Shown one piece after another: positions 1-16,796 of a stretch of DNA of 64,000 nt. Position 1 is the first letter of the stretch. Each line of letters begins with the position of its first letter. A program made the translations under genes and the position numbers. The notes below the pieces were generated by a model. The model was not told the DNA's origin. It worked only from the letters and a program-made list of their open reading frames with translations, and did no database searches. This stretch comes from Halieaceae bacterium (GTDB lineage: Bacteria; Pseudomonadota; Gammaproteobacteria; Pseudomonadales; Halieaceae), in contig JAYPVH010000008.1 of the NCBI GenBank assembly GCA_038134505.1, positions 13,567 through 77,566 of the forward strand. The letters are read 5' to 3'.

Positions 1-354
1 AGCCAATTACTGGCAGCTCCGCGGGCATTGCCAGATATTGATGGGTTACGCACGTTCATTGATCGGCAAGAAGATGACAGCGGTTCTTGGATCTTGCAGT
101 TCGGTGTCTCTGAATCGGGAAAAATCACTAATCTGGAACAACTAGCGCGACCTGAAGTCAAACAGGCAAGTGACTTCGATCGACGCATTCGGAGCTTGCG
201 GCGGGTCAAATTCCGCCCACGCTTTGAAGCGGGCCAACCTGTCGCGACCACGGGATTGCTGTGGTCTTTTGATGATGCCAGCTGGCACACTACCGACGAA
301 CCAGTGCAAGATAAGCAGTCCGCCGTTGTGGATCCTGCTGGGGAGGCTCAATGA
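1..354 (+). CDS. 3' end of a CDS entering from upstream; C-terminal ~85 aa loosely resemble a TonB C-terminal domain
   Basis: Frame 1 is open from nt 1 (SQLLAAPRALPDIDG...), so the listed 28..354 ORF is only a fragment. The segment GSWILQFGVSESGKITNLEQL...FDRRIRSLRRVKFRPRFEAGQPV follows the TonB_C layout (G-x-V-x-V-x-F-x-V-x3-G-x-V ... F-D ... W-x-F-x-P ... G-x-P-V) only loosely. The stop overlaps the next start (ATGA at 351-354). Confidence 0.4.
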   Translation, partial: SQLLAAPRALPDIDGLRTFIDRQEDDSGSWILQFGVSESGKITNLEQLARPEVKQASDFDRRIRSLRRVKFRPRFEAGQPVATTGLLWSFDDASWHTTDEPVQDKQSAVVDPAGEAQ

Positions 355-1580
355 ACCACATCATTGTTTCATCGCGTTTTGGCGCCGCTCTTATCACCTG
401 TCTTTGTTTGGTACTCAGCGGCTGCCCATCGTCTACAACGCAAACTAAACCGCCAACGCCCACCACGCCCAGCACTTCGTCAAGTAGCTCGTCCTCAAGC
501 AGCAGTTCATCTTCGAGTAACAGTTCGTCGAGCAGCAGTTCGTCCTCCAGTAGCGCTTCCTCTAGCGGCGGTAACAGTGGCGGTGCCGCGTCATCCAGCA
601 CCAATAGCGGTAGTCGCTCCTCCGGAAGTACGAGCGCATCTGCCGGTGGATCCCCCTCTGCCCCCTCCGGGTCAAGCAGCGGCACGAGTTCGACTGGCGG
701 CAGTACGAGTACCGGAGCTTCCCTCCCGACCATGGGCACCGGCGGTACCGCGGGTCCCTCGGGTAACGAGGCAGGCACCGAGGGTTCCTCGAGCGGGGGT
801 GATACGGGTTCCGGGAGTGAGGTGGGCGCATCCGCCGGCACTGACCCGGGCTTCGGCGGCGGCGGGGCGGCAGGCCTACCGAGCATGGTCGATGTGCTCC
901 CCACCTTCGATGAGCCGGTTGCCAGCAGCTCAACATCCGGCGGTACCGATTCAGAGGGCGGTGCTGAGGGCAGCGTTCCGGGAGAAGCGCCAAATAGCCA
1001 GACGGGTGGCAGTGGGTCAACAAGAGACCCTTCAACGGTAAGCGACAGCGGTACCGCGGATGCCGGCAACGGTTCACCGGGAACACGCGCTGATGGTGGA
1101 TTAACCGGCGATTGGGAAACTGACTACGGCGTCGATGGGCCTCTTACGGCGATTGAGCAAGTCGCTATCCTCGACGGTCAGCTACGTCGCAGTACCGACG
1201 AATTCGACGGCATGATTCGCGAGGAGCAAGCACGACAGCGTGAAGCAAGCCGCTCTCGCTCAACATCGGAAGCCGCGAGCGGAGCAGCCGGTAACTCGGG
1301 AGATCTTGAGACCTACGGTGGGCGAAATCCTTACGACAGCACGGGCGTCAGCGATGGCTCGATTGGCGGTGGCATGGGCGGCACCGTCGCTCGCGCACCC
1401 ACAGCACCCGACAATCCCGCGATCTACGAGGTCCCAGAGGATATTCCTATGGGTAACGATGATGACGTGGTCGCCCGTCAGCTACGAGAGGCGGCCATGC
1501 GCGAACCCGACCCGGCAGTGCGCGAGAAACTTTGGAATGAATACCGCAAATACAAGGGCTTGGAGGTCTCTGGAGAGTGA
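351..1580 (+). CDS. putative lipoprotein with a long Ser/Gly/Thr-rich disordered region and a charged C-terminal domain
   Basis: Signal peptide plus lipobox LVLSG-C25 (TGC 423-425). aa 41-72 are almost pure Ser, and the S/G/T-rich stretch runs to about aa 250. The last ~150 aa have normal composition (...DDDVVARQLREAAMREPDPAVREKLWNEYRKYKG). ATGA overlap upstream and GTGA overlap downstream. Confidence 0.7.
   Translation: MNHIIVSSRFGAALITCLCLVLSGCPSSTTQTKPPTPTTPSTSSSSSSSSSSSSSSNSSSSSSSSSSSASSSGGNSGGAASSSTNSGSRSSGSTSASAGGSPSAPSGSSSGTSSTGGSTSTGASLPTMGTGGTAGPSGNEAGTEGSSSGGDTGSGSEVGASAGTDPGFGGGGAAGLPSMVDVLPTFDEPVASSSTSGGTDSEGGAEGSVPGEAPNSQTGGSGSTRDPSTVSDSGTADAGNGSPGTRADGGLTGDWETDYGVDGPLTAIEQVAILDGQLRRSTDEFDGMIREEQARQREASRSRSTSEAASGAAGNSGDLETYGGRNPYDSTGVSDGSIGGGMGGTVARAPTAPDNPAIYEVPEDIPMGNDDDVVARQLREAAMREPDPAVREKLWNEYRKYKGLEVSGE
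471..566 (+). repeat. poly-serine coding tract (low complexity at protein level, non-repetitive at DNA level)
   Basis: 32 codons, 29 of them Ser (STSSSSSSSSSSSSSSNSSSSSSSSSSSASSS). All six Ser codons are used (AGC, AGT, TCG, TCA, TCC, TCT), read directly from nt 471-566. Confidence 0.95.
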
Positions 1581-2758
1581 AAAGATATCTCTCAGCCTTG
1601 AGCCTTGTGGCACTGATTCTGCTGCCGGGCTGTGTCACGCAGACCGTGCGCAGCACCTCCGTCGCAGCGCTTGAAACGCCACAAATGCCCATAGCAGAAG
1701 ACGAGTTACTCGATATCGGAGTCGCAATTTTCGACCCCAACCTAGAACAGGTCACAACGGACCAAGATGTACCGATTTTCGCGGAGGTCCGTCGGGCTGA
1801 GGCCACCTTCATGGCGGGACAACTCACGCAAGTACTGCAGGATCAGAACGCCTGGGGTGCCGTGCGGATCGTACCCGACGACCAGCAATTCACCGATCTA
1901 CTCGTGCGCGGCAAAATACTCAAAAGCGATGGCGAACAACTATCACTCGCCATACGCGTCACGGACGCGACCGGTCTTGAGTGGATCAATAAAACCTACT
2001 CGGGCACCACCAGTGTCTATGCCTACAACCAAACCGCTCGCGCCAACAACGACCCCTTTGTGGGCGTCTATCGAGACATCGCCAATGACCTGCTCAAGCG
2101 CTTTAACAACCGGTCCCGCAGCGAGCGGATTGCGATCCGTCGTATCGCTGAAATGCGTTTCGCGCGAGATTTTTCAGCCGATGCCTTCAGCCCCTATTTG
2201 AACCAGAACGACAAAGGCATTTACAGTTTGACGCGACTTCCTGCGGAAAATGACCCCATGCTCGAGCGTGTTCGGACTATTCGCGGTCGCAACTACACTT
2301 TTGTCGATACCTTGCAGGGGCACTACAGTGGTTTCTCCGAAGAGATTACGGGCCCCTATGATGAGTGGCGCAAAGCAAGCTATGAGGAGACGGTCGCATT
2401 GCGCGAGCTCCGCGCAGAAGCACAACGCGACATGATTCTTGGTGGTTTGGCGGTGATTGCAGGTGTGGCAGCGCAAGGCTCTGGTAGTGAATATACCCAA
2501 GCAGCGGGGGCTGTGGGTGTCATCGCCGGCGGTTATTTACTGAAAAAACGTGCTGCGTCGGAAATCCACGCGCTGGCACTTGAGGAAATCGGGCAGTCGC
2601 TGGAAGCGGAGGTGACACCGCGCGTGATCGAACTTGAGGACCGGACAGTGCGACTGTCAGGTTCTGTTGAAGACCAATACCAACAATGGCGCGAACTGCT
2701 GGCGGATATTTATGCCACGGAAATGCAGGCGCTCGAAGAACTATCCCAAGCTGAGTGA
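1577..2758 (+). CDS. putative lipoprotein with a C-terminal glycine-zipper-like hydrophobic segment
   Basis: Lipobox LLPG-C19 after a hydrophobic signal peptide. GTG start with GGAG 2 nt upstream and a GTGA overlap with the upstream stop. The Gly/Ala-rich segment MILGGLAVIAGVAAQGSGSEYTQAAGAVGVIAGGYLL lies near the C-terminus. The N-terminal alpha/beta-looking domain (IGVAIFDPN...LLVRGKILKSDGEQLSLAIRVTDATG) is reminiscent of CsgG/LpoB/TolB-N-type lipoprotein domains, but only weakly. Confidence 0.7.
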   Translation: MKRYLSALSLVALILLPGCVTQTVRSTSVAALETPQMPIAEDELLDIGVAIFDPNLEQVTTDQDVPIFAEVRRAEATFMAGQLTQVLQDQNAWGAVRIVPDDQQFTDLLVRGKILKSDGEQLSLAIRVTDATGLEWINKTYSGTTSVYAYNQTARANNDPFVGVYRDIANDLLKRFNNRSRSERIAIRRIAEMRFARDFSADAFSPYLNQNDKGIYSLTRLPAENDPMLERVRTIRGRNYTFVDTLQGHYSGFSEEITGPYDEWRKASYEETVALRELRAEAQRDMILGGLAVIAGVAAQGSGSEYTQAAGAVGVIAGGYLLKKRAASEIHALALEEIGQSLEAEVTPRVIELEDRTVRLSGSVEDQYQQWRELLADIYATEMQALEELSQAE

Positions 2759-2765
2759 TGAGGCG

Positions 2766-4304
2766 ATGCACGACCCCGAACCCCAACGGCTCGAGCCCAC
2801 ACCGTTCGCCCCATCGCAGGCTGATTCACAGGCCTTAGCCAAACCTGCCTCACGAGAGGCTCGAACCACTGCCGTGCCAATTTGGCTTGCTCTTGGATTT
2901 GCAGGGATCGCGTTATTGTTTGTCATCTTTGTGCTACCAGAACTCGTTACACCCGCCCCCAATCAGTCATCTGTCGAGCCAGTCACTGAGACTGACGCAA
3001 CGACACGACCGCTCGCCACGGCGCAATCGCAAGCGACTGACTTGGGAGTAGCGCAAACACCGTTTGCCCAAGCGCAGGAACAGGAGCGACGTCAGGCAGC
3101 ACAACAAGTGCTGGAAGCGCTGCTGGATCAACAACGCGTGCTCAAAAATCACAATGTTGAGCGGTGGGCCGAGCCGGCCTATGAGGCCGCGCTGGGCACA
3201 GCCGCAGCAGGCGACACCGCGTACCGAGATCGTGACTTCGAAGGCGCCGCAGTCGCCTACCAGAGCGCGCTAGACGCGCTCTCCGCTCTGTCAGAATCTC
3301 TGCCTGAGCGCGTTGCCACTGCGATTGATGCGCTCGATCGCGATATTGAGAACCTGAGTCTCGCTGAGGCTCAGCGCAGCCTCGATTGGCTGGGTGCCCT
3401 CAATGCGGCAGATGTCGATTTGCTGTCGTGGCAAGCGCGGGTCGATGCACTGCCCCTGGTGATCGCGGCGCTTGATGAGGGCCAGGAAGCAGTCACACGT
3501 CGAGAGTTTGACAGCGCGGTCGCCGCGGCGTCACGCGCCATCGGCGCCGACCCCGAACACCAACGTGCGCAAGTGTTGCGGCAAAATTGGCAAGCGCTCG
3601 CTCTCGATGCCGCATTCTCTCAAGCCATGAGCGAGGGCTATGCAGCGCTCGATGCTGAGCAATTCGATCGCGCTGCGCGACAATTTGAAGCCGCACAGCG
3701 CTTACGGCCCAATGCGCCAGAGACCACTGCAGCCCTCGTTGAACTGAGCACGTCGCGAACCGCAGCAGAGCTGCGCGAGTTGACTGCCGCTGGTCGCGAT
3801 AAGATCGCCGAAGAAGATTGGGCTGGCGCGCTCGAGGCATTTAATGCGGCGCTCGCCATCGATGACACCTTAGTTTTCGCGCAGATCGGCGTCGAACAAG
3901 CGACGCCGAGGCTGCAACTCGACCTCGCGATCGAGGGAATAATCGCGCAACCTGAGCGTCTGGTCGACCCGAGAATACTGAGTGATGCGCGCAGCACACT
4001 GCGCTCAGCGCGAGCCATCGAGCAAGCAGGCCCTAGACTCTCAAGCCAAATCGTGGCTTTAGAGAAGACGTTGGCCTATGCGAGTACGCCTATCACCGTC
4101 ACCCTCACCTCAGATGGACTCACCGATATTACGGTACTCAGAGCACAGCGGCTGGGACTGTTCGCCACGCAGACCATCAGCCTTCGACCTGGTGAGTACA
4201 CCGCCGTCGGCTTCCGCAATGGTTTTCGCGACGTTCGTATCACTTTTTTGGTATCCGCGGACGGGCCGAATAACGTCGACATACGGTGTGAGGAAGCGCT
4301 ATGA
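2766..4304 (+). CDS. single-pass membrane protein with a TPR-like helical-repeat region and a small C-terminal beta domain
   Basis: ATG at 2766, 8 nt after the upstream stop; the earlier in-frame part of ORF 2634..4304 overlaps the preceding gene. TM segment VPIWLALGFAGIALLFVIFVLP. Then a long Ala/Leu/Glu/Arg-rich repeat region with TPR-like A-x3-Y-x2-AL / F-x2-A-x3-F-x2-A patterns. The C-terminus ITVTLTSDG...ISLRPGEYTAVGFRNGFRDVRITFLV is PEGA/beta-sandwich-like. The stop overlaps the next start (ATGA at 4301). Confidence 0.65.
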   Translation: MHDPEPQRLEPTPFAPSQADSQALAKPASREARTTAVPIWLALGFAGIALLFVIFVLPELVTPAPNQSSVEPVTETDATTRPLATAQSQATDLGVAQTPFAQAQEQERRQAAQQVLEALLDQQRVLKNHNVERWAEPAYEAALGTAAAGDTAYRDRDFEGAAVAYQSALDALSALSESLPERVATAIDALDRDIENLSLAEAQRSLDWLGALNAADVDLLSWQARVDALPLVIAALDEGQEAVTRREFDSAVAAASRAIGADPEHQRAQVLRQNWQALALDAAFSQAMSEGYAALDAEQFDRAARQFEAAQRLRPNAPETTAALVELSTSRTAAELRELTAAGRDKIAEEDWAGALEAFNAALAIDDTLVFAQIGVEQATPRLQLDLAIEGIIAQPERLVDPRILSDARSTLRSARAIEQAGPRLSSQIVALEKTLAYASTPITVTLTSDGLTDITVLRAQRLGLFATQTISLRPGEYTAVGFRNGFRDVRITFLVSADGPNNVDIRCEEAL

Positions 4305-6418
4305 CCGAGCGCGAGCAGCCGAGCCTAGGCGGAAAAAATCCAAATTCAACGCCCGATCGCCCTCCCCGGGAGAGCGAACGACTGATACCCCAAACCTTCC
4401 AACCTCTAGGCCAGAATACCGATGAGTCCCGTCGCGGCTTGCCACTTCGCACGATTGGCCTTGCGCTCGCAGGACTATTAGCACTGTCGGCTTTAGCTTT
4501 CTTATTCGCCGCTCGGTCGCTCGAAGTTGTCATTCATACAGAGAGCGAAGCGACACTGGAGATCACGGGTGTCACAATACCGCTGGGCGACCGCTATCTT
4601 ATTCTCTCTGGAACCCATGACGTTCATGTCACCGCGGAAGGCTACGAGCCGTATCACGGGACCATCGCGGTCACTGATGAACAAACCCAACGGGTAGATA
4701 TCTTCCCTGCGATCCTGCCCGGATGGGTTTCGATAGATACGCAACCCACCGGAGCCCAAGTCTGGTTGGATGACACATTGCTTGGGGCCGCACCCATTGC
4801 GCGTGTATCCATGACTGCCGGCTCCCACAGCTTACGGATCTCCGCACCGCGGTACCAAGCTCTCGAGCGCGACCTTCAGGTCACGGGCCGCGGCGTAGTA
4901 CAGCAGATAGCCTTGGCACTTGAGCCCGATTGGGCGTTAGTGCATTTTCAAACAGATCCGACAGCTGTGACGATCTCGGTCGATGGCAACCCTGAAGTCT
5001 ATGATAACGGGGCAGTCGAAGTACTCTCGGGAGAACACCTAATAGACATCGCGGCACCGGGCTATCAGGCGCATCAGGTGCAGGTCACGATCGAAGCGGG
5101 CGTCGATCAAGATTTGGGGGTCATCACATTGCGCCCGGCCGACGGGTTACTTGAACTCGATTCAGAACCCAGCATGGCGAATGTGTCGGTGGACGGTCGA
5201 TTTCAGGGCAGGACTCCCCTTACGCTCTCACTCACGCCGGGACTCACGCATCGGATTCAAATCTCGAAAGCGGGTTATCAGCGTCGCACTGAGCGCGTAT
5301 CGCTCGAGCGCGGCACTCAGGACAGTCGCACCATCAGCTTACAGCCAGATCTCGGCGCGATCCGCTTCGTGCTCTCCCCCGCTGATGCCGAACTATTGAT
5401 CGACGGGCAGTCTGTCGGTCAAGGCTCACAAACCCTCTCACTGCCGGCACACGAACATCGCGTCGAGGTTCGCAAAGCGGGCTACGCCAGCCAGCGCGAA
5501 AAAGTCACACCGCGGCCGGGTCTGGAGCAGCAACTGGCTATCAGCCTGCTCTCTGAGGCCGAGGCGCGCAAGGCGGCAATGAAGCCCGAAGTGATCTCCT
5601 CCCTAGGCCAAACATTGCGATTAATCGACCCTCTGGGAGAACCCCGCAATGCTTTTTCAATGGGTACGTCACGCCGCGAACCGGGGCGTCGATCGAATGA
5701 AGTCCTGCACCCAGTGACCTTAGAGCGCGCTTTTTACCTCGCCACCCACGAAACCACCAACGCCCAGTTCAGACAGTTTTTGGCCAGTCACGATAGCGGT
5801 CAGATCGAGGGTAAAAGTCTCAATCGTGAGCATCAGCCGGTCGTGCGCGTGAGCTGGCAGCAGGCGGCCAGCTTCTGCAATTGGCTGTCGGCGCGAGAAG
5901 GGCTGCCGCCGTTCTACCGCGAGTCACAGGGGATCATTACAGGCTATAACACCTCTAGCACCGGCTATCGACTGCCCACCGAAGCAGAGTGGGCCTTCGC
6001 TGCACGAATACAGGGGGATAACACCTTGAGATTCGCTTGGGGTGATGCGTGGCCTCCGACGACGCCCGTGACCAATGTGGCGGACAACAGCTCCGCTTAT
6101 GTCACGGGTCGAATCTTGAATGGTTACGAAGATGGCTACATTGTCAGCGCGCCGGTCGGCAGTTTTCCCGCCAACCCCAGAGGTCTTTTTGATATCGGCG
6201 GCAACGTAGCGGAGTGGGTTCACGACGTGTACCAAATCCCCTCGCCTAATAGCGATGTTGAGGTCGATCCCTTAGGGGCGCAGAATGGCGATAACTACAC
6301 GGTTCGCGGTGGAAGCTGGTCTTTGAGTAGACTGTCTGAGTTACGACTCACCTACCGCGATTACGGTCAATCGGGTCGCGATGATTTAGGATTTAGAATT
6401 GCACGATATGCACAATAA
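4301..6418 (+). CDS. membrane-anchored protein with five PEGA-like repeats and a C-terminal FGE-sulfatase (SUMF1/EgtB/PvdO-type) fold that lacks the FGE catalytic Cys pair
   Basis: TM at aa 51-71 (IGLALAGLLALSALAFLFAAR). Five ~68-aa repeats (aa 74-417, nt 4520-5551), each ending in a (A/K)(E/P/A)GY motif (TAEGYEP, SAPRYQA, AAPGYQA, SKAGYQR, RKAGYAS). FGE-fold hallmarks: SWQQAASFCNWLS, GYRLPTEAEWAFAAR, GNVAEWVHD, VRGGSW. After RGGSW the sequence is SLSRLSELRLTYRDYG, with no Cys. Confidence 0.8.
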   Translation: MTEREQPSLGGKNPNSTPDRPPRESERLIPQTFQPLGQNTDESRRGLPLRTIGLALAGLLALSALAFLFAARSLEVVIHTESEATLEITGVTIPLGDRYLILSGTHDVHVTAEGYEPYHGTIAVTDEQTQRVDIFPAILPGWVSIDTQPTGAQVWLDDTLLGAAPIARVSMTAGSHSLRISAPRYQALERDLQVTGRGVVQQIALALEPDWALVHFQTDPTAVTISVDGNPEVYDNGAVEVLSGEHLIDIAAPGYQAHQVQVTIEAGVDQDLGVITLRPADGLLELDSEPSMANVSVDGRFQGRTPLTLSLTPGLTHRIQISKAGYQRRTERVSLERGTQDSRTISLQPDLGAIRFVLSPADAELLIDGQSVGQGSQTLSLPAHEHRVEVRKAGYASQREKVTPRPGLEQQLAISLLSEAEARKAAMKPEVISSLGQTLRLIDPLGEPRNAFSMGTSRREPGRRSNEVLHPVTLERAFYLATHETTNAQFRQFLASHDSGQIEGKSLNREHQPVVRVSWQQAASFCNWLSAREGLPPFYRESQGIITGYNTSSTGYRLPTEAEWAFAARIQGDNTLRFAWGDAWPPTTPVTNVADNSSAYVTGRILNGYEDGYIVSAPVGSFPANPRGLFDIGGNVAEWVHDVYQIPSPNSDVEVDPLGAQNGDNYTVRGGSWSLSRLSELRLTYRDYGQSGRDDLGFRIARYAQ

Positions 6419-6683
6419 CCTCCGCTTCAGCACTGTGGTGCTCAGCCTCTTGCTGAGTCACCTTAGCGCCGCGCAGACCACTGACGCGGAGCCGCTGCAA
6501 GTGCCTGAAGCAGCTTCGGCACAATCTAGCGAGACCCCGCCGGCGGCGGCGACAGATCCGCTGGCTAATGAAGCTGAAATGCCAGCATCAGTCGCATCGA
6601 CGCCCTCCAACTCGCCCTTTGACTACGAACCCACAGAGGCCATCCGCAAGGATAATTCTGTCTCTTTCCCCGTCGACATTTGA
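6399..6683 (+). CDS. small secreted acidic, Pro/Ala/Ser-rich protein (hypothetical)
   Basis: The signal-peptide-like N-terminus LRFSTVVLSLLLSHLSAAQT is followed by a low-complexity acidic region and the C-terminal motif DNSVSFPVDI. Start is ATG 6399 or ATG 6408; both overlap the 3' end of the upstream gene. A small ORF, so coding status is less certain. Confidence 0.5.
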   Translation: MHDMHNNLRFSTVVLSLLLSHLSAAQTTDAEPLQVPEAASAQSSETPPAAATDPLANEAEMPASVASTPSNSPFDYEPTEAIRKDNSVSFPVDI

Positions 6684-6695
6684 GAGGATGCCGGT

Positions 6696-7499
6696 GTGAA
6701 TTTTCGCCTACCTTCTGAATTTATGTACCAAGTCTTCGCACTACTGATCGCCATCATTGTGGTGCACGGCGCCTACGTCGGTGTCATTCGCCCAAGCGCC
6801 GATGCACAACTGGCCGAAGAGGCGGCGCTACAGGCGGCCGGTGAGGAATTTACGCCAAAGCGGTCGCTGGCGGTGGTTGTGCGAGATTTTGAACAAGAAG
6901 CCTGCTTTGTATTAATGCTGTGGGCCTTCGCGATTATGGGACTCAAAGCAGCACGAACCCGAACCGAAGCAAGAATGCTCGAACGATCACTCATCGGCAT
7001 TGCCGAGGGCACCAGTGTATTACCGCAGGATGCGCGAGAGTACTCGCGAGCGCTCGAGGCACTGGACCCAGAAGAGCAAGATCTTCTCTTGCCGCGCGCC
7101 CTGCTCAATGGCCTACAGCGCTTTGCGACAACGGGTAGCATTCCCGCGGTATCAGAGGCGGTACGAGAACAATGTGACATTGAAGCTGATCGACTGGATT
7201 CTGAGTTGTCTATGGTGCGCTATATCTCATGGGCCATTCCGTCCATTGGTTTTATCGGCACCGTACGCGGTATCGGCGATGCACTAGGCCAGGCGTATAA
7301 AGCGGTTGAAGGCGATATCTCGGGCGTGACCGTGAGCCTAGGTGTCGCTTTCAACAGCACGTTCGTCGCACTGGTATTGTCTATTTTCATTATGTTCGCT
7401 TTACACCAGTTGCAATTGTCTCAGGAGCGGTTGGTACTCAATACCCAGCGTTATGTTGATCGCACGTTACTCCGTCATTTGGCAGTGCCGAGATCATGA
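6696..7499 (+). CDS. MotA/TolQ/ExbB-family proton-channel protein
   Basis: GTG start with GAGAGG 8 nt upstream. Four hydrophobic segments (about aa 11-31, 68-86, 174-194, 212-238) with an ~85-aa loop between segments 2 and 3. The C-terminal signature ISWAIPSIGFIGTVRGIGDALGQ...SLGVAFNSTFVALVLSIFIMF matches the MotA_ExbB core (P-x-x-G-(L/F)-x-G-T-V-x-G ... A-(L/F)-x-(T/S)-T). Confidence 0.85.
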   Translation: MNFRLPSEFMYQVFALLIAIIVVHGAYVGVIRPSADAQLAEEAALQAAGEEFTPKRSLAVVVRDFEQEACFVLMLWAFAIMGLKAARTRTEARMLERSLIGIAEGTSVLPQDAREYSRALEALDPEEQDLLLPRALLNGLQRFATTGSIPAVSEAVREQCDIEADRLDSELSMVRYISWAIPSIGFIGTVRGIGDALGQAYKAVEGDISGVTVSLGVAFNSTFVALVLSIFIMFALHQLQLSQERLVLNTQRYVDRTLLRHLAVPRS

Positions 7500-8743
7500 C
7501 GGTTGTTCTCGACATTCTCGATCGTGAAATCACCTGTTGGGTAGGGGATGATGCCGTCGTTTCTCCGGGTTTCGCCCACTTTGCACAGAATCAGTATCAC
7601 TTTGGAGCCCAAGCACAACAGATGGCGCGCATCGCACCGAGAGAGGTGAATACGCGCTACTGGACTCGGCTGAGCACTGACCCATTGGTGCCGGCTATCG
7701 GCCCCGCGCGCCACACTGCGGATTTGGCTCACAGTCATTTGCAAACTCTTTTGCAGCAAGCGGGGCAACCCAACGACGCGCTCATTAGCGTCTCGGGCCA
7801 AATGACACCCAGTCAACTGTCGTTACTCATGGGTATCTTGCAGAGTCTGGGGGTAACGACCTCAGCTGTGGTGCACCGCAGTCTGCTAGTGGCCGCGGGC
7901 CACGACGCGCAATGGCACTGCGAAGTCCAGCTACATCAAACGCTGGTCACCCCACTCAGCCGGGAAGGCGGAAGGCTGACCGCCGGGAGCAGCATTGAAT
8001 TGGTGCACTTGGGCAGCCTCTCATTACTCGATCGCCTCGGACACCGCGTGGCCGACGCGTTTATCACACAGACTCGCTTTGATCCGCATAAGCGCGCGAC
8101 CACCGAACAGGCGCTGTTCGACGCACTGCCCGACATGCTATCGGCCCTGCGCCAACACAGCGAAACGCAGGTCACGATTGAAGGCTACAGCGCGCGGATC
8201 ACACGCGACAGCCTGATCGATATTGGCACGCAGGCAGCTAGCGAACTGTCAGCTGTCGTCGGACCCAACGGTTCGGTCATGCTCGATGCCGCCTTGGCCG
8301 ACTTTCCCGGATTCGCGATCCCTTGCGCCACGTTCGTCACGCCCACTGAGCAGATCCCGACAATTTTTCTGCGCGAGGCGCAGAGTCTGACGGCCGACCC
8401 CTCGGAGCTCGTGTTTCATCGTTCGATCAGCGACGCAGTCGATGCGACAACCCATGACAAGGCAGACCCCGATACGACCTTCCTCTCGGAGTCCAGTGAC
8501 AACGCTGCTCAGCCGACTCACCTGCTCGAGGGAGATACAGCCTTCGCGCTGGGTCGCGTTATGACACTCGACAATGGCACAGTCCTGCTCGCTGCAGCCG
8601 ATGGCTTGCGCCTCGGCCAAGGGCACCCGCGCGCCCTCACTGTCAATGGCGAAGCAGCGATCGCAGGTCAGGCACTTCATATCGGCGATGAGCTGGCGGA
8701 TTCGGATGGCGTTATCGGCCGCTTGATCGCTGTACGCGGGTGA
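7496..8743 (+). CDS. soluble hypothetical protein; the N-terminal half weakly resembles a degenerate Hsp70/actin-fold nucleotide-binding domain
   Basis: ATGA overlap with the MotA-like stop. No TM segment or signal peptide. VVLDILDREITCWVG... aligns positionally with the Hsp70 IGIDLGTTNSCVAV phosphate-1 loop, but the motif is degenerate. ALISVSGQMTPSQLSLLMGILQSLGVTTSAVVHRSLLVAAG parallels [41 protein letters not shown]. The C-terminal ~70 aa look like a small beta domain. Confidence 0.6.
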   Translation: MTVVLDILDREITCWVGDDAVVSPGFAHFAQNQYHFGAQAQQMARIAPREVNTRYWTRLSTDPLVPAIGPARHTADLAHSHLQTLLQQAGQPNDALISVSGQMTPSQLSLLMGILQSLGVTTSAVVHRSLLVAAGHDAQWHCEVQLHQTLVTPLSREGGRLTAGSSIELVHLGSLSLLDRLGHRVADAFITQTRFDPHKRATTEQALFDALPDMLSALRQHSETQVTIEGYSARITRDSLIDIGTQAASELSAVVGPNGSVMLDAALADFPGFAIPCATFVTPTEQIPTIFLREAQSLTADPSELVFHRSISDAVDATTHDKADPDTTFLSESSDNAAQPTHLLEGDTAFALGRVMTLDNGTVLLAAADGLRLGQGHPRALTVNGEAAIAGQALHIGDELADSDGVIGRLIAVRG

Positions 8744-8746
8744 ATT

Positions 8747-9838
8747 GTGGCGCGTCGCAAGCGACAAGCATCGACGTTTAACTTAAGCTTCCTCGACATT
8801 ATGTCTTGCGGATTCGGCGCGGTCGTTCTGGTGTTTCTCATCATCGATCACGCGATAGAAGTGGAATATAAGACCCTCAACGCCGACGTGCTATCAGAAA
8901 TCGCACTTCTCGATGAGGACATTCGTGAAGGCGAAGCCGGGCTCGTTCGTTTGCGCAACGCGCTCACAGATGCCGATGCCGATATCGTCGAAGCACAGGG
9001 ACTGGCTTCGCGTGTTACCGAAGAACTCAGTCGCTTTGAAGCCCTCATCGCAGCGATGGAAGAATCAGGAGTGACCACCGATGCCGATATCGAAGCCATC
9101 AAGGCGGAGATCAACCGACTCGAACAAGAGGTCAAAGAGCTGCGCGAATCGGCTGAAGCCGATGGAGGGCGCAGCGCCCGTGATTTTAGTGGCGATGGGC
9201 AGAGGCAATATCTTACGGGATTGAATCTCGGCGGCTCCCGCATACTGATCCTGCTCGATGCCTCAGCGAGTATGCTGTCTGATCAGTTAGTCAATATTAT
9301 TCGGCTGCGGAATATGGACGAGGCCTTACAACTGTCCGCAGAAAAGTGGGTCCGCGCACGCTCGACAGTGGACTGGCTCATGGCGCAGCTGCCGATAAAC
9401 TCACGATTCCAACTGGTGGTCTTCAACACGCAAGCGCGATTTGTGCTGCCTGAGACGGCAAACATTTGGATCGATGTCGCAGATAGCGACAAACTCGAAA
9501 AGCTCTCGGAAGGTCTCGGTCGCCTGCGGCCCGAGGGTGGCACCAGTTTGCACAACGCCTTCAGTCAGGCCAATGCGTTCAATTCTCGACCTGATAACAT
9601 TTTTTTGATTACCGACGGCCTGCCCACACAGGGCACCAAGCCGCCGCGAGGCCCCACTATCAGCGGGCCCGATCGGTTGCGATTATTTCGCGAGGCCGCC
9701 AAGCTCTTACCCAAGGGGGTCCCTGTCAATATTATCTTGGCGCCGATGGAGGGCGATCCATTAGCGGCCTCGGAATTTTGGCGGCTGGCACAGGATTCTG
9801 GGGGCAGTTTTATGAGCCCCGCCAGAGATTGGCCCTGA
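8747..9838 (+). CDS. ExbD/TolR-like TM anchor + coiled coil + von Willebrand factor A (vWA) domain protein
   Basis: GTG start 4 nt after the upstream stop. The N-terminus RRKRQASTFNLSFLDIMSCGFGAVVLVFLII resembles the ExbD/TolR TM with Asp (D17, nt 8795-8797). aa ~36-140 are heptad-like and E/A/L/R-rich. The vWA MIDAS is ILILLD171ASAS (nt 9257-9271), followed by GGTS and FLITDGLPT. Confidence 0.85.
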   Translation: MARRKRQASTFNLSFLDIMSCGFGAVVLVFLIIDHAIEVEYKTLNADVLSEIALLDEDIREGEAGLVRLRNALTDADADIVEAQGLASRVTEELSRFEALIAAMEESGVTTDADIEAIKAEINRLEQEVKELRESAEADGGRSARDFSGDGQRQYLTGLNLGGSRILILLDASASMLSDQLVNIIRLRNMDEALQLSAEKWVRARSTVDWLMAQLPINSRFQLVVFNTQARFVLPETANIWIDVADSDKLEKLSEGLGRLRPEGGTSLHNAFSQANAFNSRPDNIFLITDGLPTQGTKPPRGPTISGPDRLRLFREAAKLLPKGVPVNIILAPMEGDPLAASEFWRLAQDSGGSFMSPARDWP

Positions 9839-9843
9839 GGTGA

Positions 9844-10845
9844 ATGATGCGAAGTCGACGCGCGCCCGCTGAATTTTCGATCTCCTTTTTGGATGTGATC
9901 TGCTGTGGCTTCGGTGCAGTCATTCTCTTGCTCATGATCACCAAAACGGTACAACCGCAAATTCTTGAGCAATCCAGCATCGTGGCTGAAGGTCGTGTGG
10001 CTGAGTTAACTGAACAATTGTTTGAAATTCGCGGAGAGACGCGGATTTTGAACCGCGATCTCACAGTGAAGCGCGAACAAATTTCCAGTTATGAGGAGCG
10101 CATTGCGGTGCTACAGGGCGCACTCGCCAGTGCGCGAGCACGACACGATACGCTGAATACATCGCGCAACGCGAACAGCATTATTCTCGATCAACTGGCG
10201 ATCGCGAGGCAGCGCCTGACTGATGAAGAGCGACGTCTGCTGGGTGACCGCTACGAAAGCAAAAACAACCTGATCGGTGGGATACCTGTCGACAGCGAAT
10301 ACATTATTTTTATCATCGACACATCGGGGTCAATGTTCTCCTACGCCTGGCCTCGCATGCTCAAAGAGATGGAGGCGACGCTCAACATCTACCCAGAAGT
10401 CAAAGGGATTCAGGTCTTAAACGACATGGGTAACTACCTGTTTAGCCGCTACCGCGGGCAATGGATTCCCGATACCCCAGCGCGACGTGACCTCATCCTG
10501 CGCAGTTTGGCCAACTGGAATGTATTCTCAAACTCGTCCCCTGTGGAGGGTCTGACCGCGGCGATCCGATCCTTCTATGATCCTGGGAAAAAGATTTCAA
10601 TCTATGTTTTCGGCGACGAATTTACAGGTGAGTCGATTGAGAGCGTGGTCCGCACCGTCGATCAACTCAACAGTGAGACGACCTCAGGACAGCGCCGAGT
10701 CAGGATCCATGCTGTGGGTTTCCCAGTCCAGTTCATTCGACCACCCGAGCTACAAACAACCGGCATTCGGTTTGCTACACTGATGCGTGAGTTGGCCTAC
10801 AAAAATGGTGGCACATTTGTCGGACTCAATGATTTTCGGCCCTAG
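9844..10845 (+). CDS. ExbD/TolR-like TM anchor + coiled coil + vWA domain protein (paralog of 8747..9838)
   Basis: GAGGTGA lies immediately upstream of the ATG. The N-terminus RSRRAPAEFSISFLDVICCGFGAVILLLMIT shares the pattern of the preceding gene (D17, nt 9892-9894). Coiled-coil-like aa ~40-135. The vWA has IIFIID159TSGS (nt 10318-10332), but the downstream MIDAS Thr/Asp positions look degenerate. Confidence 0.85.
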   Translation: MMRSRRAPAEFSISFLDVICCGFGAVILLLMITKTVQPQILEQSSIVAEGRVAELTEQLFEIRGETRILNRDLTVKREQISSYEERIAVLQGALASARARHDTLNTSRNANSIILDQLAIARQRLTDEERRLLGDRYESKNNLIGGIPVDSEYIIFIIDTSGSMFSYAWPRMLKEMEATLNIYPEVKGIQVLNDMGNYLFSRYRGQWIPDTPARRDLILRSLANWNVFSNSSPVEGLTAAIRSFYDPGKKISIYVFGDEFTGESIESVVRTVDQLNSETTSGQRRVRIHAVGFPVQFIRPPELQTTGIRFATLMRELAYKNGGTFVGLNDFRP

Positions 10846-10861
10846 ACCTTACGATTTGAAA

Positions 10862-11524
10862 ATGATCGCGCTCGTCGCGGTGATGGCATTGTCTGGGTGT
10901 AGCAACAAGCAGGTCATCGTCACCGGCAATTTCCCTACGCCGACCATGACCAAAGTTCAAACGACCCTCGGAGTGGTGTATTCACCTGAATTCGCCAACC
11001 ACGAATTTTTCGACGAAGCCAAAGGGCGCAACGAATCCTCTTGGCTGGTCCAGACAGGTACCGCCCAAGTCGAGTTTTGGAATACTTTCCTGCCGGGAAT
11101 GTTCGAGCGTGTCGTGGTGATTGGTTCAGATGAAGACTGGCACACTCACCACGAATCCCTAGACGCCGTATTGATACCACAGGTGGCCGAACTGCAATAC
11201 GCCATCCCCTTGCACACCAATGTGAAAGTCTATGAAATTTGGTTGCGCTATCAATTTAGACTGGTCACGCCTGAGGCAATTCACGCGCACGAGGCGGAAA
11301 GCCTCATGTTTAATCCAGCCGAGGATATTGCCAGCTTTACACTAACGGCCTACGGGAAAACCCCCTCAGCATTCATGCAATCTGATACCGACGCTGTAAA
11401 TTATGCAGCCATCGTTGCGCTGCGCGATGCGGGCGCCAACTTTGTCACCCAATTTGACCGTATTCCCGCAGTCGCGACATGGCTCCTAGCGCTGGGAGAG
11501 GATACGCCGGGAGAGGCGCCATGA
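10862..11524 (+). CDS. putative lipoprotein (hypothetical)
   Basis: ATG 10862 lies 17 nt after the upstream stop and gives MIALVAVMALSG-C with a lipobox. The longer ORF start at 10787 would overlap the vWA gene. The stop overlaps the next start (ATGA at 11521). Confidence 0.65.
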   Translation: MIALVAVMALSGCSNKQVIVTGNFPTPTMTKVQTTLGVVYSPEFANHEFFDEAKGRNESSWLVQTGTAQVEFWNTFLPGMFERVVVIGSDEDWHTHHESLDAVLIPQVAELQYAIPLHTNVKVYEIWLRYQFRLVTPEAIHAHEAESLMFNPAEDIASFTLTAYGKTPSAFMQSDTDAVNYAAIVALRDAGANFVTQFDRIPAVATWLLALGEDTPGEAP

Positions 11525-12186
11525 TAGCCAATCCGCGACTCCCACTGTCTCTGGTGCTTGTGCTCTCGCTACAGGCCTGCGTCAGCGCGACGGTCAATGA
11601 AATGACCTACAACGAGCCTGAAGCGGGTATCGGTGATGCCGCCCTTGTCATCTTGGGGCGCCGTCATGCACCTGACTACGACACCGAGTTCGATTTCATC
11701 GATTGTGTTGGCAAAGTGATTCATAGTGGCGATCCAAGCATCACGGTCATCAACGAGCGGCAATTTATCGATCGCCTCTACCCCTGGTTCGAACCACGAA
11801 TTGCCCCTATGCAACCGTCTGATATCGATCGATTACGCGCACAAGAGCCAATTCAAGAGCAGCTCAGCCGGTTTGGTATTGAATACATGATCTGGATAGA
11901 CGGCACCACGATCGAAACCAACAGCACAGGCTCAATGACCTGTGGTGTTGGGCCCGGTGGCGCGGGTTGTTTTGGCTTTGGTACTTGGGGGAATGAAGCC
12001 AACTATGAAGCGACCATCTGGAATCTGAACGAGCAAGCAGAGGTGGGAAAGGTCAGTGCGGAAACCAGCGGCCAGAGTTATATGCCCGCGGTGATTGTAC
12101 CCATCCCGATTATCGCGCCGGTTCAAGACACCGCCTGTGAGAGTCTGGGTCTGCAGCTGCTGCAATATTTCTCCTCGGAGCATTGA
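11521..12186 (+). CDS. putative lipoprotein (hypothetical)
   Basis: ATG 11521 gives MIANPRLPLSLVLVLSLQA-C with a lipobox. Translationally coupled to the upstream gene. Contains the Gly-rich loop CGVGPGGAGCFGFGTWG. Confidence 0.65.
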   Translation: MIANPRLPLSLVLVLSLQACVSATVNEMTYNEPEAGIGDAALVILGRRHAPDYDTEFDFIDCVGKVIHSGDPSITVINERQFIDRLYPWFEPRIAPMQPSDIDRLRAQEPIQEQLSRFGIEYMIWIDGTTIETNSTGSMTCGVGPGGAGCFGFGTWGNEANYEATIWNLNEQAEVGKVSAETSGQSYMPAVIVPIPIIAPVQDTACESLGLQLLQYFSSEH

Positions 12187-12188
12187 TC

Positions 12189-13598
12189 ATGCGAGCCATT
12201 GTTTTGGGTCTATCAATATCGATGATCTTAGGCTGTGCCAGTAGCGGATCTACAGTCACAGTCGGCGGTAGACCGGTGTCTATGCCCTCGGACACCGCTG
12301 AGGAGCATGAAAAACTGATTGAGAATGTGGGTCTCTATGACGATCCCGAACTCGCCGCCTATGTCGAGCGTATAGGACAACAATTGGTCGCCAACTCGCG
12401 TATGCCCAAGCAAACATTCACCTTCACACTACTCGATTCACCCGACATTAACGCCTTCGCGTTACCCGGTGGCTTCATCTACGTGAACCGAGGCTTACTG
12501 GCCTACCTCGACAGTGAGGCAGAACTCGCGGCTGTCTTGGCCCATGAAATTGGGCACATCACTGAGCGACATCACAGTCGGCGTAAGACGCAGAGCGTGA
12601 CCTCGCAGGTTGCCGCTGTGACCGCATATATCCTCACGGGATCGGGTCAGATCTACGATGCGGCCTCGATGTATGGGGCAGAGCTGATCTCAGGTTTCGG
12701 GCGTGACATGGAGCTTGAGGCGGATGCCGCTGGCGCTGAGACGATGCATCGCACAGGCTATGAGGCCGATGCGATGCTCTCTGTCATTGGCGTCCTGAAG
12801 GACCAGGAACAGTATCGACGCGTGCAAGCGCGCGCGTCAGGAAAACCCTCTGGTACGTATCATGGGCTGTACTCTAGCCATCCGCGAAATGACCTACGCT
12901 TGCAGACCGTCATCCGGACGGCGAGTGCTCTCGATATCGACAACCAACCCGAGAATCCTGAGCAACCCGGCGTCTTTCAAACTCAGGTCGAGGGCCTCGT
13001 ATTTGGTGCCAGTGCCGAAGCGCAGAGTGAACCCGATCGTTTCTATCACAACAACCTCGATTTCACATTTGCGCACCCGCCTGGTTGGTCGGTGGTACAG
13101 CAAAGCCGCGCCATCGTCGCCACCAATGCCGCGGGCGACGCGACACTGACGATTACCTTGGACCGAATCGAACCCGATAGCACCGCCTCACAAGCCCTAG
13201 AGGACGGTGCTGGGGGAACATTGAGTGACACCGAGGCCTTCGAGCAGTTTGGTTTGAACGGCGCCACCGCGCGCTCCTCGAGTGCAGACGCAACCCTGCG
13301 CCTCGCTGTGATCGATCACAGCTACCGATTTTTGTTTGAGGGCACGTCCAAAGACCTTGACGCTACAGACGCCGATTTTTTAGAGATGATCCGAAGCTTC
13401 AGACCGTTAGTCGCGCGTGAGAAGGTCACGGGTGTCAGTCGCACGCTGCACTATATACAAGTACCTAGGGGGGCAACGCTTGAGTCCCTATCGAGTAGCG
13501 CGCGCGTCCCTGATGCCGAGAACCAGCTACGCCTGATCAATGGCTACTATCCGGTCGGCGAGCCGCGTACCGGCGACTGGGTCAAAACCATTCGCTAA
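12189..13598 (+). CDS. M48-family zinc metalloprotease, lipoprotein
   Basis: Lipobox MILG-C. The HExxH zinc motif sits in LAHEIGHITERHH, and the DINAFALPGGFIYVNRGLL context is typical of M48 (HtpX/BepA-like) peptidases. Start is ATG 12189 (or TTG 12183), 3 nt after the upstream stop. Confidence 0.8.
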   Translation: MRAIVLGLSISMILGCASSGSTVTVGGRPVSMPSDTAEEHEKLIENVGLYDDPELAAYVERIGQQLVANSRMPKQTFTFTLLDSPDINAFALPGGFIYVNRGLLAYLDSEAELAAVLAHEIGHITERHHSRRKTQSVTSQVAAVTAYILTGSGQIYDAASMYGAELISGFGRDMELEADAAGAETMHRTGYEADAMLSVIGVLKDQEQYRRVQARASGKPSGTYHGLYSSHPRNDLRLQTVIRTASALDIDNQPENPEQPGVFQTQVEGLVFGASAEAQSEPDRFYHNNLDFTFAHPPGWSVVQQSRAIVATNAAGDATLTITLDRIEPDSTASQALEDGAGGTLSDTEAFEQFGLNGATARSSSADATLRLAVIDHSYRFLFEGTSKDLDATDADFLEMIRSFRPLVAREKVTGVSRTLHYIQVPRGATLESLSSSARVPDAENQLRLINGYYPVGEPRTGDWVKTIR

Positions 13599-15350: not shown

Positions 15351-15467
15351 CGCCATCGCGCCCTGAATACGTATTCACAAACGCCTCTTAACCCTAGATT
15401 GTGCTGACCTCGGCCTGACTTCGGTGCACACTAAGTGCTTCATCGTCCCACCCTTTTAGGAACCGGT

Positions 15468-16796
15468 ATGTCCGCTGAATCTGCTACGCCTATCAAGTCA
15501 CGTCTCTCACTGTGGCAAATCTGGAACATGTGCTTTGGCTTCATGGGTATCCAGTACGGCTTCGGTCTTCAGCAAGCAAACCTCAGCCCTATATTCAGAT
15601 ATCACGGCGCAAACGAATCAGAACTGCCAATATTGTGGCTCGCCGGCCCCATCACTGGTTTACTCATTCAGCCCCTGATCGGCGCGATTAGTGACGGTAC
15701 ATGGACCCGATTTGGACGCCGTAAACCTTTCTATTTGTGGGGTGCTCTTATTGGCAGCATCGCTGTCATGTTCATGCCCTATGTGCCGGCACTCTGGATG
15801 GCTGTAGGCCTTTTTTGGATTCTCGATGCGGCAATGAACACGGCGATGGAGCCGTATCGCGCTCTGGTTGGCGACAAGCTCGCGCCACAGCAACGCTCTG
15901 TCGGATATGCAATGCAGACATTTATGGTCGCGGCGGGTCAGATCCTGGCGGGGCTCATGCCGCTGATCATGTTGGCGTGGGGCGTCTCTGCGGAGACTGA
16001 TGGCCGCGAAATACCCGACATCGTCAAATACAGTTTTGTGATTGGTGTTGCGGCGATGATGGTCACCATGACTTGGACGGCGATCACGACGCCTGAGATC
16101 CCCCCTGTGGATATACAGGCTTTTGAGCAGGCCAAAGAAGGCAGTACGTTTCTCCAGAGAACGAGTAGAGACCTCATCTCATCCATCACGGAAATGCCCG
16201 AGCAAATACGGAAACTGTGGTGGACAAAGTTTTTTACTTGGTATGGACTGCCCCTGATGTGGCAATACCTCGCTCTCTCAATCGCTCGCCATTGCTTTAA
16301 TGCGCCAACACCGCAATCACCAGGATTTGCTGAGGGAGCCGCTAACGTAGGGCTCGCCTTTACGTTTATGAACGTGACGACATTGCTATTCGCATTTATC
16401 GTTCCCAGCCTAGTATCTCGATTCGGCACGCGTTTGGTGTACGCCATGTTGCTGTTCACAGGCGGTATCGGCTTCATCAGTATGCTGTTCACCAATGAAC
16501 TCAATGTGGTCTTAGCGTGTATGGTCCTGGTGGGCATCGGCTGGGCTGGTGTGATGACTTTGCCATTTATCATCGTCAGTAATGAGGTGGCGCCCGAGCG
16601 AATGGGTGTCTATATGGGCCTCATTAACGCGTTCATCTGTTTGCCACAAATCGCGAGTATGCTCACAGTGGGATTGTTCTATGACACATTGCTCGCGAGC
16701 GACCCACGCAATGCATTAGCACTCTGTGGTGTGTGCTTCGTTCTCGCCGGAGCAGCCGCAATGCGGCTTCGCACGCAAGCGAGTATCGTGGGCTAA
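15468..16796 (+). CDS. MFS transporter, GPH/SLC45-like sugar:cation symporter family
   Basis: About 12 hydrophobic segments. The RFGRRKPF motif after TM2 is typical of GPH/SLC45 transporters. ATG 15468 is preceded by AGGA at a 7-nt spacing. Confidence 0.75.
   Translation: MSAESATPIKSRLSLWQIWNMCFGFMGIQYGFGLQQANLSPIFRYHGANESELPILWLAGPITGLLIQPLIGAISDGTWTRFGRRKPFYLWGALIGSIAVMFMPYVPALWMAVGLFWILDAAMNTAMEPYRALVGDKLAPQQRSVGYAMQTFMVAAGQILAGLMPLIMLAWGVSAETDGREIPDIVKYSFVIGVAAMMVTMTWTAITTPEIPPVDIQAFEQAKEGSTFLQRTSRDLISSITEMPEQIRKLWWTKFFTWYGLPLMWQYLALSIARHCFNAPTPQSPGFAEGAANVGLAFTFMNVTTLLFAFIVPSLVSRFGTRLVYAMLLFTGGIGFISMLFTNELNVVLACMVLVGIGWAGVMTLPFIIVSNEVAPERMGVYMGLINAFICLPQIASMLTVGLFYDTLLASDPRNALALCGVCFVLAGAAAMRLRTQASIVG

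Follow-up and report, generated by a model that had tools for sequence, protein, structure and literature searches.

A conserved envelope gene cluster of Halieaceae and relatives that combines a TolQ-like channel, two vWA plug candidates and a set of candidate partner proteins

Few routes are known by which inner-membrane energy reaches the outer envelope of Gram-negative bacteria, namely Ton, Tol, the flagellar stator, Agl-Glt, GldLM and Zorya. We analyzed a stretch of 64,000 nucleotides from a Halieaceae bacterium, a member of the OM60/NOR5 gammaproteobacteria (GenBank assembly GCA_038134505.1, contig JAYPVH010000008.1, forward-strand positions 13,567 to 77,566), which we refer to as the window. 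At its start lies a cluster of envelope genes, numbered g0 to g12 here, that surrounds a channel gene of the MotA/TolQ/ExbB family (g6) and two genes for proteins with a vWA (von Willebrand factor A) domain (g8 and g9). A reading made earlier from the letters alone (the sequence-only reading) had taken the cluster for a candidate undescribed system driven by the proton-motive force (PMF). A comparable arrangement has been described: tolQ homologues are tightly linked to heterologous pairs of vWA genes whose products carry an Asp in the transmembrane (TM) helix, without tolR or exbD (PMC12204202; Mol Biol Evol 2025;42:msaf138, Fig. 4c,d). In an AlphaFold 3 model the two vWA proteins sit as a dimer within a TolQ-like pentamer, where Thr residues encircle the Asp pair, and this TolQ-like/TPH-vWA family was found mainly in Proteobacteria and Verrucomicrobia, with its function not assigned (PMC12204202).

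We compared g6, g8 and g9 with the TPH-vWA pairs, a family seeded on Idiomarina, by their described features and found every stated feature in them. The motor core is of a known, computationally predicted kind, and for this part the word undescribed had to be given up. It appears to hold for the partner genes, which go unmentioned there: the published text treats the motor and vWA genes only, the terms PEGA, sulfatase, formylglycine and GldK have no occurrence in it, and a TM protein with tetratricopeptide repeats (TPR), the g1 and g2 lipoproteins, a C-terminal-tail peptide, an Hsp70-fold protein and an M48 peptidase are all absent from it (PMC12204202). We also found no literature linking PEGA proteins or proteins with the fold of the formylglycine-generating enzyme (FGE) to MotA/TolQ-family channels. 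What appears to be newly observed here is the eight-gene machine with its tail peptide and PorK-like stalk protein, together with the Hsp70-fold, TonB_C and lipoprotein additions of particular lineages. On balance we consider it somewhat more likely than not that the locus encodes a PMF-driven envelope machine of the Mot/Ton/Tol type that puts force onto an outer-envelope lipoprotein complex; our confidence is moderate for the motor part and low for the biological output.

The channel and its two vWA plug candidates

Related loci were collected by a scan for channel relatives in 185,579 species-representative genomes, and hidden Markov models of each family were built from the hits. The samples comprised the 80 best genome hits, three loci at ~40% channel identity and, from metagenomes, 80 loci for which a clade at ~30% served as the seed. 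Presence counts refer to the 72 loci with complete flanks, a sample in which the relatives that scored highest in each scan are over-represented.

The assignment of g6 to the MotA/TolQ/ExbB channels was borne out, with a family score of 53.3 bits against a cut-off of 22.9. Equivalog models scored under their cut-offs, at 28.1 versus 221 bits for TolQ (TIGR02796) and 19.6 versus 135 bits for ExbB (TIGR02805). The AlphaFold2 (AF2) model of g6 had a predicted local distance difference test (pLDDT) score of 90, and a Foldseek search with this model returned TolQ as the best match (9ddm_E, 6e-4, TM-score (TMt) 0.65; 8vlw_B, TMt 0.68), followed by ExbB, with PomA, MotA and ZorA further down. By profile alignment, T189 and T222 of g6 coincided with the Thr residues in the GTVWGI and ALIATAIGL segments of E. 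coli TolQ, which we take to be the functionally important T145 and T178. In relatives down to 29% identity T222 was invariant and T189 was conserved in at least 90%. The window protein shared 99% identity with metagenomic sequences and 82% with the channel of Luminiphilus syltensis. A separate ExbD, TolR or MotB gene was found neither in the window cluster nor in any of the 72 complete loci, and a scan of ten downstream open reading frames (ORFs) revealed no second gene of the MotA/TolQ/ExbB type.

Both g8 and g9 open with a basic stretch followed by the helix S-F-L-D-[IV]-x-x-C-G-F-G-A, the Asp of which was retained in 90-95% or more of the homologues, which numbered over 100. The metal ion-dependent adhesion site (MIDAS; DxSxS, T, D) was invariant in both families. 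In g8, Asp17 was kept in at least 90% and the MIDAS residues were invariant; in g9, D17, D159, S161, S163 and D258 were all invariant, and the conservation of this protein was second only to that of the channel. The TM Asp and the MIDAS Asp lie at an almost constant distance from each other (medians 153 and 142 residues). Neither window protein matched ExbD/TolR (PF02472). Pfam recognized VWA_2/VWA_3 in the window copy of g8 and VWA_2 in 29/29 members of its family. The window copy of g9 had no Pfam match, and matches in its family were weak (VWA_2 in 5/28; ExbD in 1/28, at 0.0022 and over the TM region only). The two proteins matched each other at 3e-10 by BLASTP, and their families aligned in hhalign with 99.8% probability (E 1.7e-30, 310 columns). 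The vWA assignment of g9 follows from this homology to g8 together with the weak direct matches, and the sequence-only reading was right in listing two proteins that join an ExbD-like TM helix to a coiled coil and a vWA domain, g9 being a full-length paralogue of g8. The two are ancient paralogues whose lineages stayed separate in every clade, and this fits an obligate heterodimer. From these features, g8 and g9 are likely plug subunits that replace ExbD, TolR or MotB.

Among the known motors, the closest solved channel structure was that of TolQ, and the locus also resembles TolQRA-TolB-Pal of E. coli in keeping the pore Thr and plug Asp residues, in the predicted tie between an inner-membrane motor and outer-membrane lipoproteins, and in its housekeeping context. 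It differs in that a presumably heterodimeric plug, which continues into a coiled coil and a vWA domain, stands in place of TolR; in that TolA with its SHLS helix, TolB, Pal and any OmpA-like domain were missing in profile scans; and in that sequence similarity of the channel to TolQ is marginal. The GldLM/PorLM motor with the ring of GldK/PorK and GldN/PorN, which serves type IX secretion and gliding in Bacteroidota, shares the proposed 5:2 PMF-driven arrangement, a dimeric subunit with a long periplasmic arm, and a non-catalytic FGE-fold partner, to which the g4 head gave its top sequence matches. The channel here is nevertheless TolQ-like and not GldL, and the arm is a coiled coil with a vWA head and not GldM. 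Moreover, g4 is anchored in the inner membrane through PEGA repeats whereas GldK/PorK is an outer-membrane lipoprotein, and its score against the GldK model was far under the cut-off (101 versus 350 bits) with true FGEs scoring almost equally. GldN, SprA or other genes of type IX secretion were not found in the cluster by profile scans.

Conservation, gene order and extent of the locus

Close channel relatives were present in at least 597 of the 185,579 genomes, and the channel family includes thousands of metagenomic proteins. The 80 best hits, with 59-83% channel identity, came from Halieaceae, Microbulbifer, Cellvibrionaceae, Porticoccaceae, Pseudohongiellaceae and other groups, and tblastn showed the same order of g0 to g11 in essentially all of them. 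Congregibacter, L. syltensis, Chromatocurvus and Microbulbifer are carriers that can be cultured. Carriers were mainly marine Gammaproteobacteria, and the source names of related channels point to Alphaproteobacteria. Four genes (g4, g6, g8 and g9) were present in 72/72 loci and three more (g1, g2 and g3) in 71/72, g2 being kept in the most distant clade too. These seven were colinear in 71 of the 72 loci, down to ~30% channel identity, indicating that the block is not a chance assembly; the conserved neighbourhood on which the earlier proposal had depended was thus found. Reduced clades hold exactly g1-g2-g3-g4-[small ORF]-g6-g8-g9. The distribution supports co-evolution of the envelope scaffold (lipoproteins, TPR protein and PEGA-FGE protein) with g8 and g9.

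The remaining genes were less constant. We found g7 in 64/72 loci (it is missing from the reduced clade), g10 and g11 in 57/72, g0 in 54/72 (missing from all reduced clades), and the M48 peptidase gene adjacent in 40/72. In four metagenomic loci (L128, L135, L145 and L162) g10 and g11 did not follow g9 and were instead divergently transcribed upstream of g1, beside g0. The accessory genes therefore move as a module.

Channel identity tracked taxonomy, and the flanks were common to the window and L. syltensis apart from one inserted gene pair, described below. From this the system looks like a vertically inherited chromosomal one rather than an island. Some metagenome-assembled genomes labelled Saprospiraceae, Phenylobacterium, Acidobacteriota and Enterobacteriaceae (L043, L077, L080, L035, L044) had a channel 59-65% identical to that of Halieaceae and the same operon of gammaproteobacterial type. 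For these carriers with odd labels, contaminated bins or wrong labels are a more probable explanation than wide horizontal spread.

Within the window, the ORFs and coordinates of the sequence-only reading were reproduced, and the ORF list showed thirteen co-directional, densely packed envelope genes on the + strand between 1 and 13598 (Table 1). Thirteen had been counted within 1-12186; twelve lie there, and the thirteenth is the M48 lipoprotein peptidase gene. Reading the junctions directly, we saw start/stop overlaps of 4 nt at 351 (ATGA), 1577 (GTGA), 4301, 7496, 11521 (ATGA) and 12183 (TTGA), the last of which had been overlooked while the other five had been reported. The putative TTG start of g5 (6399) lies 20 nt within g4, and the remaining intergenic gaps measured 3-16 nt. 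A signal scan gave no excess of promoter-like or terminator-like sites over the operon, and no Rfam family was matched. Given the junctions and the synteny, the block looks like one operon. The idea of a single operon of thirteen genes thus survives in the form of twelve genes plus one, four or five of which are lineage-specific accessories outside the core.

Table 1. Genes of the cluster, with positions counted from the first letter of the window
Gene	Class	Positions	Strand	Predicted product	Profile match
g0	accessory	1..354	+	C-terminal fragment of a ~490-aa secreted protein with TPR and TonB_C	
g1	core	351..1580	+	lipoprotein, lipobox LSGC; long Ser/Gly-rich disordered linker and small C-terminal module	
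g2	core	1577..2758	+	393-aa lipoprotein of an orphan family, lipobox LPGC; Gly-rich hydrophobic hairpin at ~288-325	
g3	core	2766..4304	+	bitopic inner-membrane protein: short cytoplasmic tail, TM, periplasmic TPR-like region, C-terminal PEGA-like beta domain	
g4	core	4301..6418	+	bitopic inner-membrane protein: four PEGA repeats and one CarboxypepD_reg-like repeat, non-catalytic FGE-fold head	
g5	core	6399..6683	+	small secreted acidic protein with signal peptide; C-terminal tail [FY]-P-x-[D/N]-I-COOH (here SVSFPVDI)	
g6	core	6696..7499	+	TolQ-like ion channel subunit of the MotA/ExbB family; presumed pentamer	PF01618, 3e-14
g7	accessory	7496..8743	+	415-aa cytoplasmic protein of the Hsp70/actin fold (ASKHA) with C-terminal beta domain	
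g8	core	8747..9838	+	TolR/ExbD-like transpore helix (Asp17), ~100-aa coiled coil, vWA with MIDAS DASAS...T...D	
g9	core	9844..10845	+	g8 paralogue that shares its architecture; Asp17, MIDAS DTSGS	
g10	accessory	10862..11524	+	220-aa lipoprotein of an orphan family, lipobox LSGC	
g11	accessory	11521..12186	+	221-aa lipoprotein of an orphan family, lipobox LQAC	
g12	frequent neighbour	12183..13598	+	M48 metallopeptidase lipoprotein; start overlaps the g11 stop	Peptidase_M48, 5.2e-36

The first gene is cut by the edge of the window, and its 5' end lies outside. In L. syltensis the g0 orthologue has ~492 aa and opens the block, beside a divergent thioesterase gene. At the other end, a possible extension to 15350 had been proposed. 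The unit does not reach that far, because the amidohydrolase gene at 13614-15350 is missing in L. syltensis and was present in only 7/72 related loci. Here it forms a pair with a gene of the major facilitator superfamily (MFS) at 13614-16796, flanked by the M48 peptidase gene on one side and the Lactamase_B/SDF genes on the other, and synteny ruled out both as operon members. Since the flanks in L. syltensis are identical minus the pair, the comparison of the two sequences identifies the amidohydrolase-MFS pair as a lineage-specific insertion. The long ORFs 290-1086 on the - strand and 364-1041 on the + strand in another frame overlap the Ser/Gly-rich part of g1, where low complexity and a high GC content produce them; both are spurious. 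Housekeeping genes (lptD, tyrS, an M23 peptidase gene, dsbD, purH, accC and trpE) make up the remainder of the window, including 54144-56582 and its neighbours.

Candidate partner and accessory proteins

A short cytoplasmic tail and a single N-terminal TM anchor, which is not a lipobox, open g4. Pfam detected PEGA at 1.9e-43 and FGE-sulfatase at 5.7e-41, so both domains named in the sequence-only reading were present, its five PEGA repeats being resolved into the four plus one of Table 1. The best NCBIfam match was GldK/PorK (TIGR03525; 6.3e-29, 101.5 bits versus a cut-off of 350), and the best PDB sequence matches of the head were to PorK/GldK (1.6e-19) with true FGE close behind (1.8e-18). 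A Cys in the FGE catalytic segment was found in 0/109 g4 homologues, the segment of the window protein being RGGSWSLSRLSELRLTYRDY. The head is thus predicted to be a binding module and not an enzyme. For g3, the TM helix of the earlier description was confirmed while the TPR assignment was weaker, TPR_16 matching at 7.6e-5, under the Pfam cut-off. Its C-terminus carries the conserved motif SLRPG.YTAVG.R.G.RDV.

Lipoboxes had been proposed for four proteins of the cluster and were present in all four window copies (g1, g2, g10 and g11). They were found in ~70-75% of the homologues, and Asp never occurred at position +2. By this analogy with sorting in E. coli, g1 and g2 are predicted to be outer-membrane lipoproteins. 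No Pfam or NCBIfam model matched g1, the C-terminal module of which is conserved (...DDDVVARQLREAA..E.DP..REKLW.EYRKYKG). At a distant locus (L085:3491-4636) a trypsin-like serine protease occupies the g1 slot, joined to the g1 C-terminal module in place of the linker. This fusion was seen in 1/28 homologues and was on that count rejected as a general feature of g1. From its sequence context the module may be a docking domain able to carry varied cargo.

The most conserved part of g5 is its end. The last 7 residues were at least 95% conserved among 79 sequences, and the body was poorly conserved. A small ORF with a signal peptide, lying between g4 and g6 and ending in [FLIVM]-P-x-D-[IVL]-stop, was found in 124/148 loci. 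Ten of the exceptions were inspected, of which eight had close variants (SYPIDI, AYPVDI, TFPINI, SFPTNI and others), one was divergent and one was cut short. In the most distant clade the tail reads LPDDI. Further examples are L083:9835-9999, L084:9853-9999 and L085:9824-9997, and in L086-L088 the ORF lies directly upstream of the channel gene. The pattern looks like that of a docking or tag peptide.

Among the accessories, the claim of a TonB_C fragment at 1-354 held for the family more than for the window, where the match was weak (E 0.036). The g0 family matched TonB_C in 12/27 members (best 5.8e-9) and TPR_12 in 25/27, and in the full-length orthologue L001:2209-3687 TPR follow a signal peptide. 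The signal peptide is cleavable, and g0 is without a TM anchor or an SHLS motif. The g7 protein had no Pfam or PDB sequence match and its fold is named from the predicted structure only (ASKHA, acetate and sugar kinases/Hsp70/actin; AF2 pLDDT 87). Foldseek ranked Hsp70 nucleotide-binding domains (NBDs) on top, at E 5e-14 to 1e-11 (Ssz1 1.5e-13; DnaK NBD TMt 0.68). In an alignment of 27 sequences the invariant columns showed no phosphate-binding DxG or Gly-rich loop. Compared with its neighbours g7 evolves fast, with ~40% identity to the nearest Luminiphilus and metagenomic relatives. In g11, C20, C62, C141, C150 and C206 were invariant, and the family has a conserved Gly-rich segment, CGVGPGGAGCFGFGTW. 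The four invariant Cys residues beyond that of the lipobox, together with this segment, suggest a disulfide-stabilised orphan fold. Alignment of the g2, g10 and g11 families by hhalign was weak and unconvincing, with probabilities of 20-41%.

A proposed force-transmitting machine and its alternatives

In the PMF-driven machine that we propose, five g6 subunits would surround a g8/g9 heterodimer, the Asp helices of which would replace TolR, ExbD or MotB; the 5:2 ratio is carried over from MotAB, ExbBD and TolQR. Proton flow through the Asp-Thr sites would lead to relative rotation of the pentamer and the dimer. Because the coiled coil and the vWA domain continue from the plug helix, the plugs themselves would be the force arms, each running into a stalk of ~100 residues capped by a MIDAS-bearing vWA domain. 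The MIDAS heads would take hold of a partner located ~15-20 nm above the inner membrane, for which g4, g3, the predicted outer-membrane lipoproteins g1 and g2 and the tail of g5 are candidates. A coiled coil of ~100 residues would reach ~15 nm, and five PEGA-type repeats would lift the g4 head to a like height, such that the mid or outer periplasm could be the meeting place of the vWA and g4 heads, the periplasmic region of g3 and the lipoproteins with long linkers. The g5 tail might dock on the MIDAS site through its carboxylate, or on the TPR protein in the manner of a carboxylate-clamp TPR. Where present, g7 may act like PilM on PilN and hold either the cytoplasmic tails of g3 and g4 or g6 by its large, conserved cytoplasmic domain. 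Halieaceae and relatives would have gained g7, g0, g10, g11 and often g12. As output we propose that the machine acts mechanically on a lipoprotein complex of the outer envelope, for envelope tethering, remodelling or quality control in a way analogous to Tol-Pal, and not for import, motility or defence. The proposal of the sequence-only reading that the vWA heads are tensioned against a scaffold of outer-membrane lipoprotein, TPR and PEGA proteins is plausible.

A number of observations weigh against this machine. TonB and TolA dock on their pentamers through an SHLS/His motif, and reading the TM helices of g3 and g4 revealed no such motif. No outer-membrane beta-barrel, peptidoglycan-binding domain or enzyme that would mark the output was evident. 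The outer-membrane placement of the lipoproteins follows from the +2 rule of E. coli. Pfam matches were absent from all 27 members of the g2 family, as were PDB sequence matches, and Pfam scans of family members and PDB profile searches were likewise empty for g10 and g11. The penultimate Asp of g5 is Asn in some clades, and its candidacy as a universal MIDAS ligand was weakened by this. We found no literature on phenotypes of these systems, and no deletion phenotypes have been reported for the vWA-motor families (PMC12204202).

A broader idea, which we hold tentatively and think possible rather than probable, is that MIDAS-bearing plugs are the periplasmic, PMF-driven counterpart of AAA+/MIDAS pullers, with a job distinct from uptake, division-site tethering, flagellar rotation, gliding, secretion and defence. 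As part of the same tentative idea, such a machine would pair with a PorK-like stalk, a TPR protein, two outer-membrane lipoproteins and an [FY]PxDI protein, for example in force-dependent remodelling or extraction of outer-envelope proteins. A rival reading, in which the MIDAS heads capture clients or a tagged adaptor (the g5 tail), torque takes the place of the AAA+ ATPase and clients are handed to proteases, we consider unlikely. The periplasm is free of ATP and vWA/MIDAS proteins elsewhere typically partner mechanical ATPases of the MoxR, midasin or Mg-chelatase type, the M48 lipoprotein peptidase gene is translationally coupled to the cluster and often adjacent to it, one g1 homologue joins a trypsin-like protease to the g1 module, and the g5 tail is conserved and tag-like. 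However, the protease is missing from the reduced eight-gene form and from 32/72 loci, the trypsin fusion is a single case, no substrate is evident and the argument is purely analogical. The Bat/MoxR-vWA systems also have paired membrane-anchored vWA proteins beside TPR proteins, with MIDAS heads that presumably grip partners. The vWA proteins of Bat are not known to have an Asp helix like that of TolR or to be linked with a channel of the MotA family. Profile scans found neither a MoxR AAA+ ATPase nor DUF58 in the cluster, and we found no support for a Bat reading.

The sequence-only reading had also considered a distant Agl-Glt relative, that is, a machine for surface motility or adhesin deployment akin to Agl-Glt of Myxococcus or its sporulation twin Nfs. 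Themes are shared in the heterodimeric plug within a TolQ-like pentamer, the periplasmic TPR, the small and mostly disordered protein, the TonB_C domain, the lipoproteins and the vWA component, which is CglB in Agl-Glt (PMC11761067, PMC9946355). The defining parts are missing, though: there are no TolR-type plugs such as AglQ/S, profile scans found no beta-barrels of the GltA/B/H type and no cytoplasmic parts of the GltI/AglZ/MglA type, and the core partners are others, PEGA-FGE, g2 and g5 having no Glt counterpart. Moreover, the vWA domain is fused to the plug and is not an outer-membrane adhesin, heads anchored in the inner membrane cannot reach the cell surface, and the TonB_C protein is accessory and secreted and not membrane-anchored like GltG/J. 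We regard this kinship as very unlikely. A Ton-like energiser of outer-membrane transport would use g0 as its transducer, and both the genuine TonB_C domain of the g0 family and the closeness of the channel fold to ExbB and TolQ speak for it; yet g0 is missing from 18/72 loci and all reduced clades, its cleavable signal peptide leaves it without a TM anchor or SHLS motif, and no TonB-dependent receptor was found in or beside the cluster in the window and the inspected loci, so that we give this reading little credence. Profile scans agreed with the sequence-only reading that TonB-dependent receptors, OmpA-like domains, MoxR/DUF58 and Zorya-type effectors are lacking. Envelope defence, which it had listed as an option, fared poorly: Zorya, a membrane anti-phage system, also uses a 5:2 complex like that of MotA/MotB, and ZorA does occur, far down, in the structural match list, but PADLOC gave no match for g0-g9 except a coiled-coil artefact, and there is no nuclease, helicase or other effector. 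The syntenic context is housekeeping, conservation follows taxonomy and the parts are strongly conserved and not diversifying, which leaves this explanation with next to no probability. A trans-envelope scaffold or tether that acts passively, its channel having lost ion conduction, could account for the structural-looking parts (PEGA, TPR, a non-catalytic FGE fold and lipoproteins). It is hard to square with the plug Asp and pore Thr residues being kept at or above 90-100% across clades at ~30% identity, and we find it improbable to a high degree.

If the locus does encode a PMF-driven envelope machine, it would represent a further and abundant route to the ATP-free outer envelope, with a conserved parts list of eight genes. 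It would bear on how 5:2 motors are rewired for new outputs and on what vWA/MIDAS heads do under a rotary motor as compared with an ATPase. It also defines orphan families (the g1 C-terminal module, g2, g5, g10 and g11) and a family known by fold only (g7), all of them linked to the machine.

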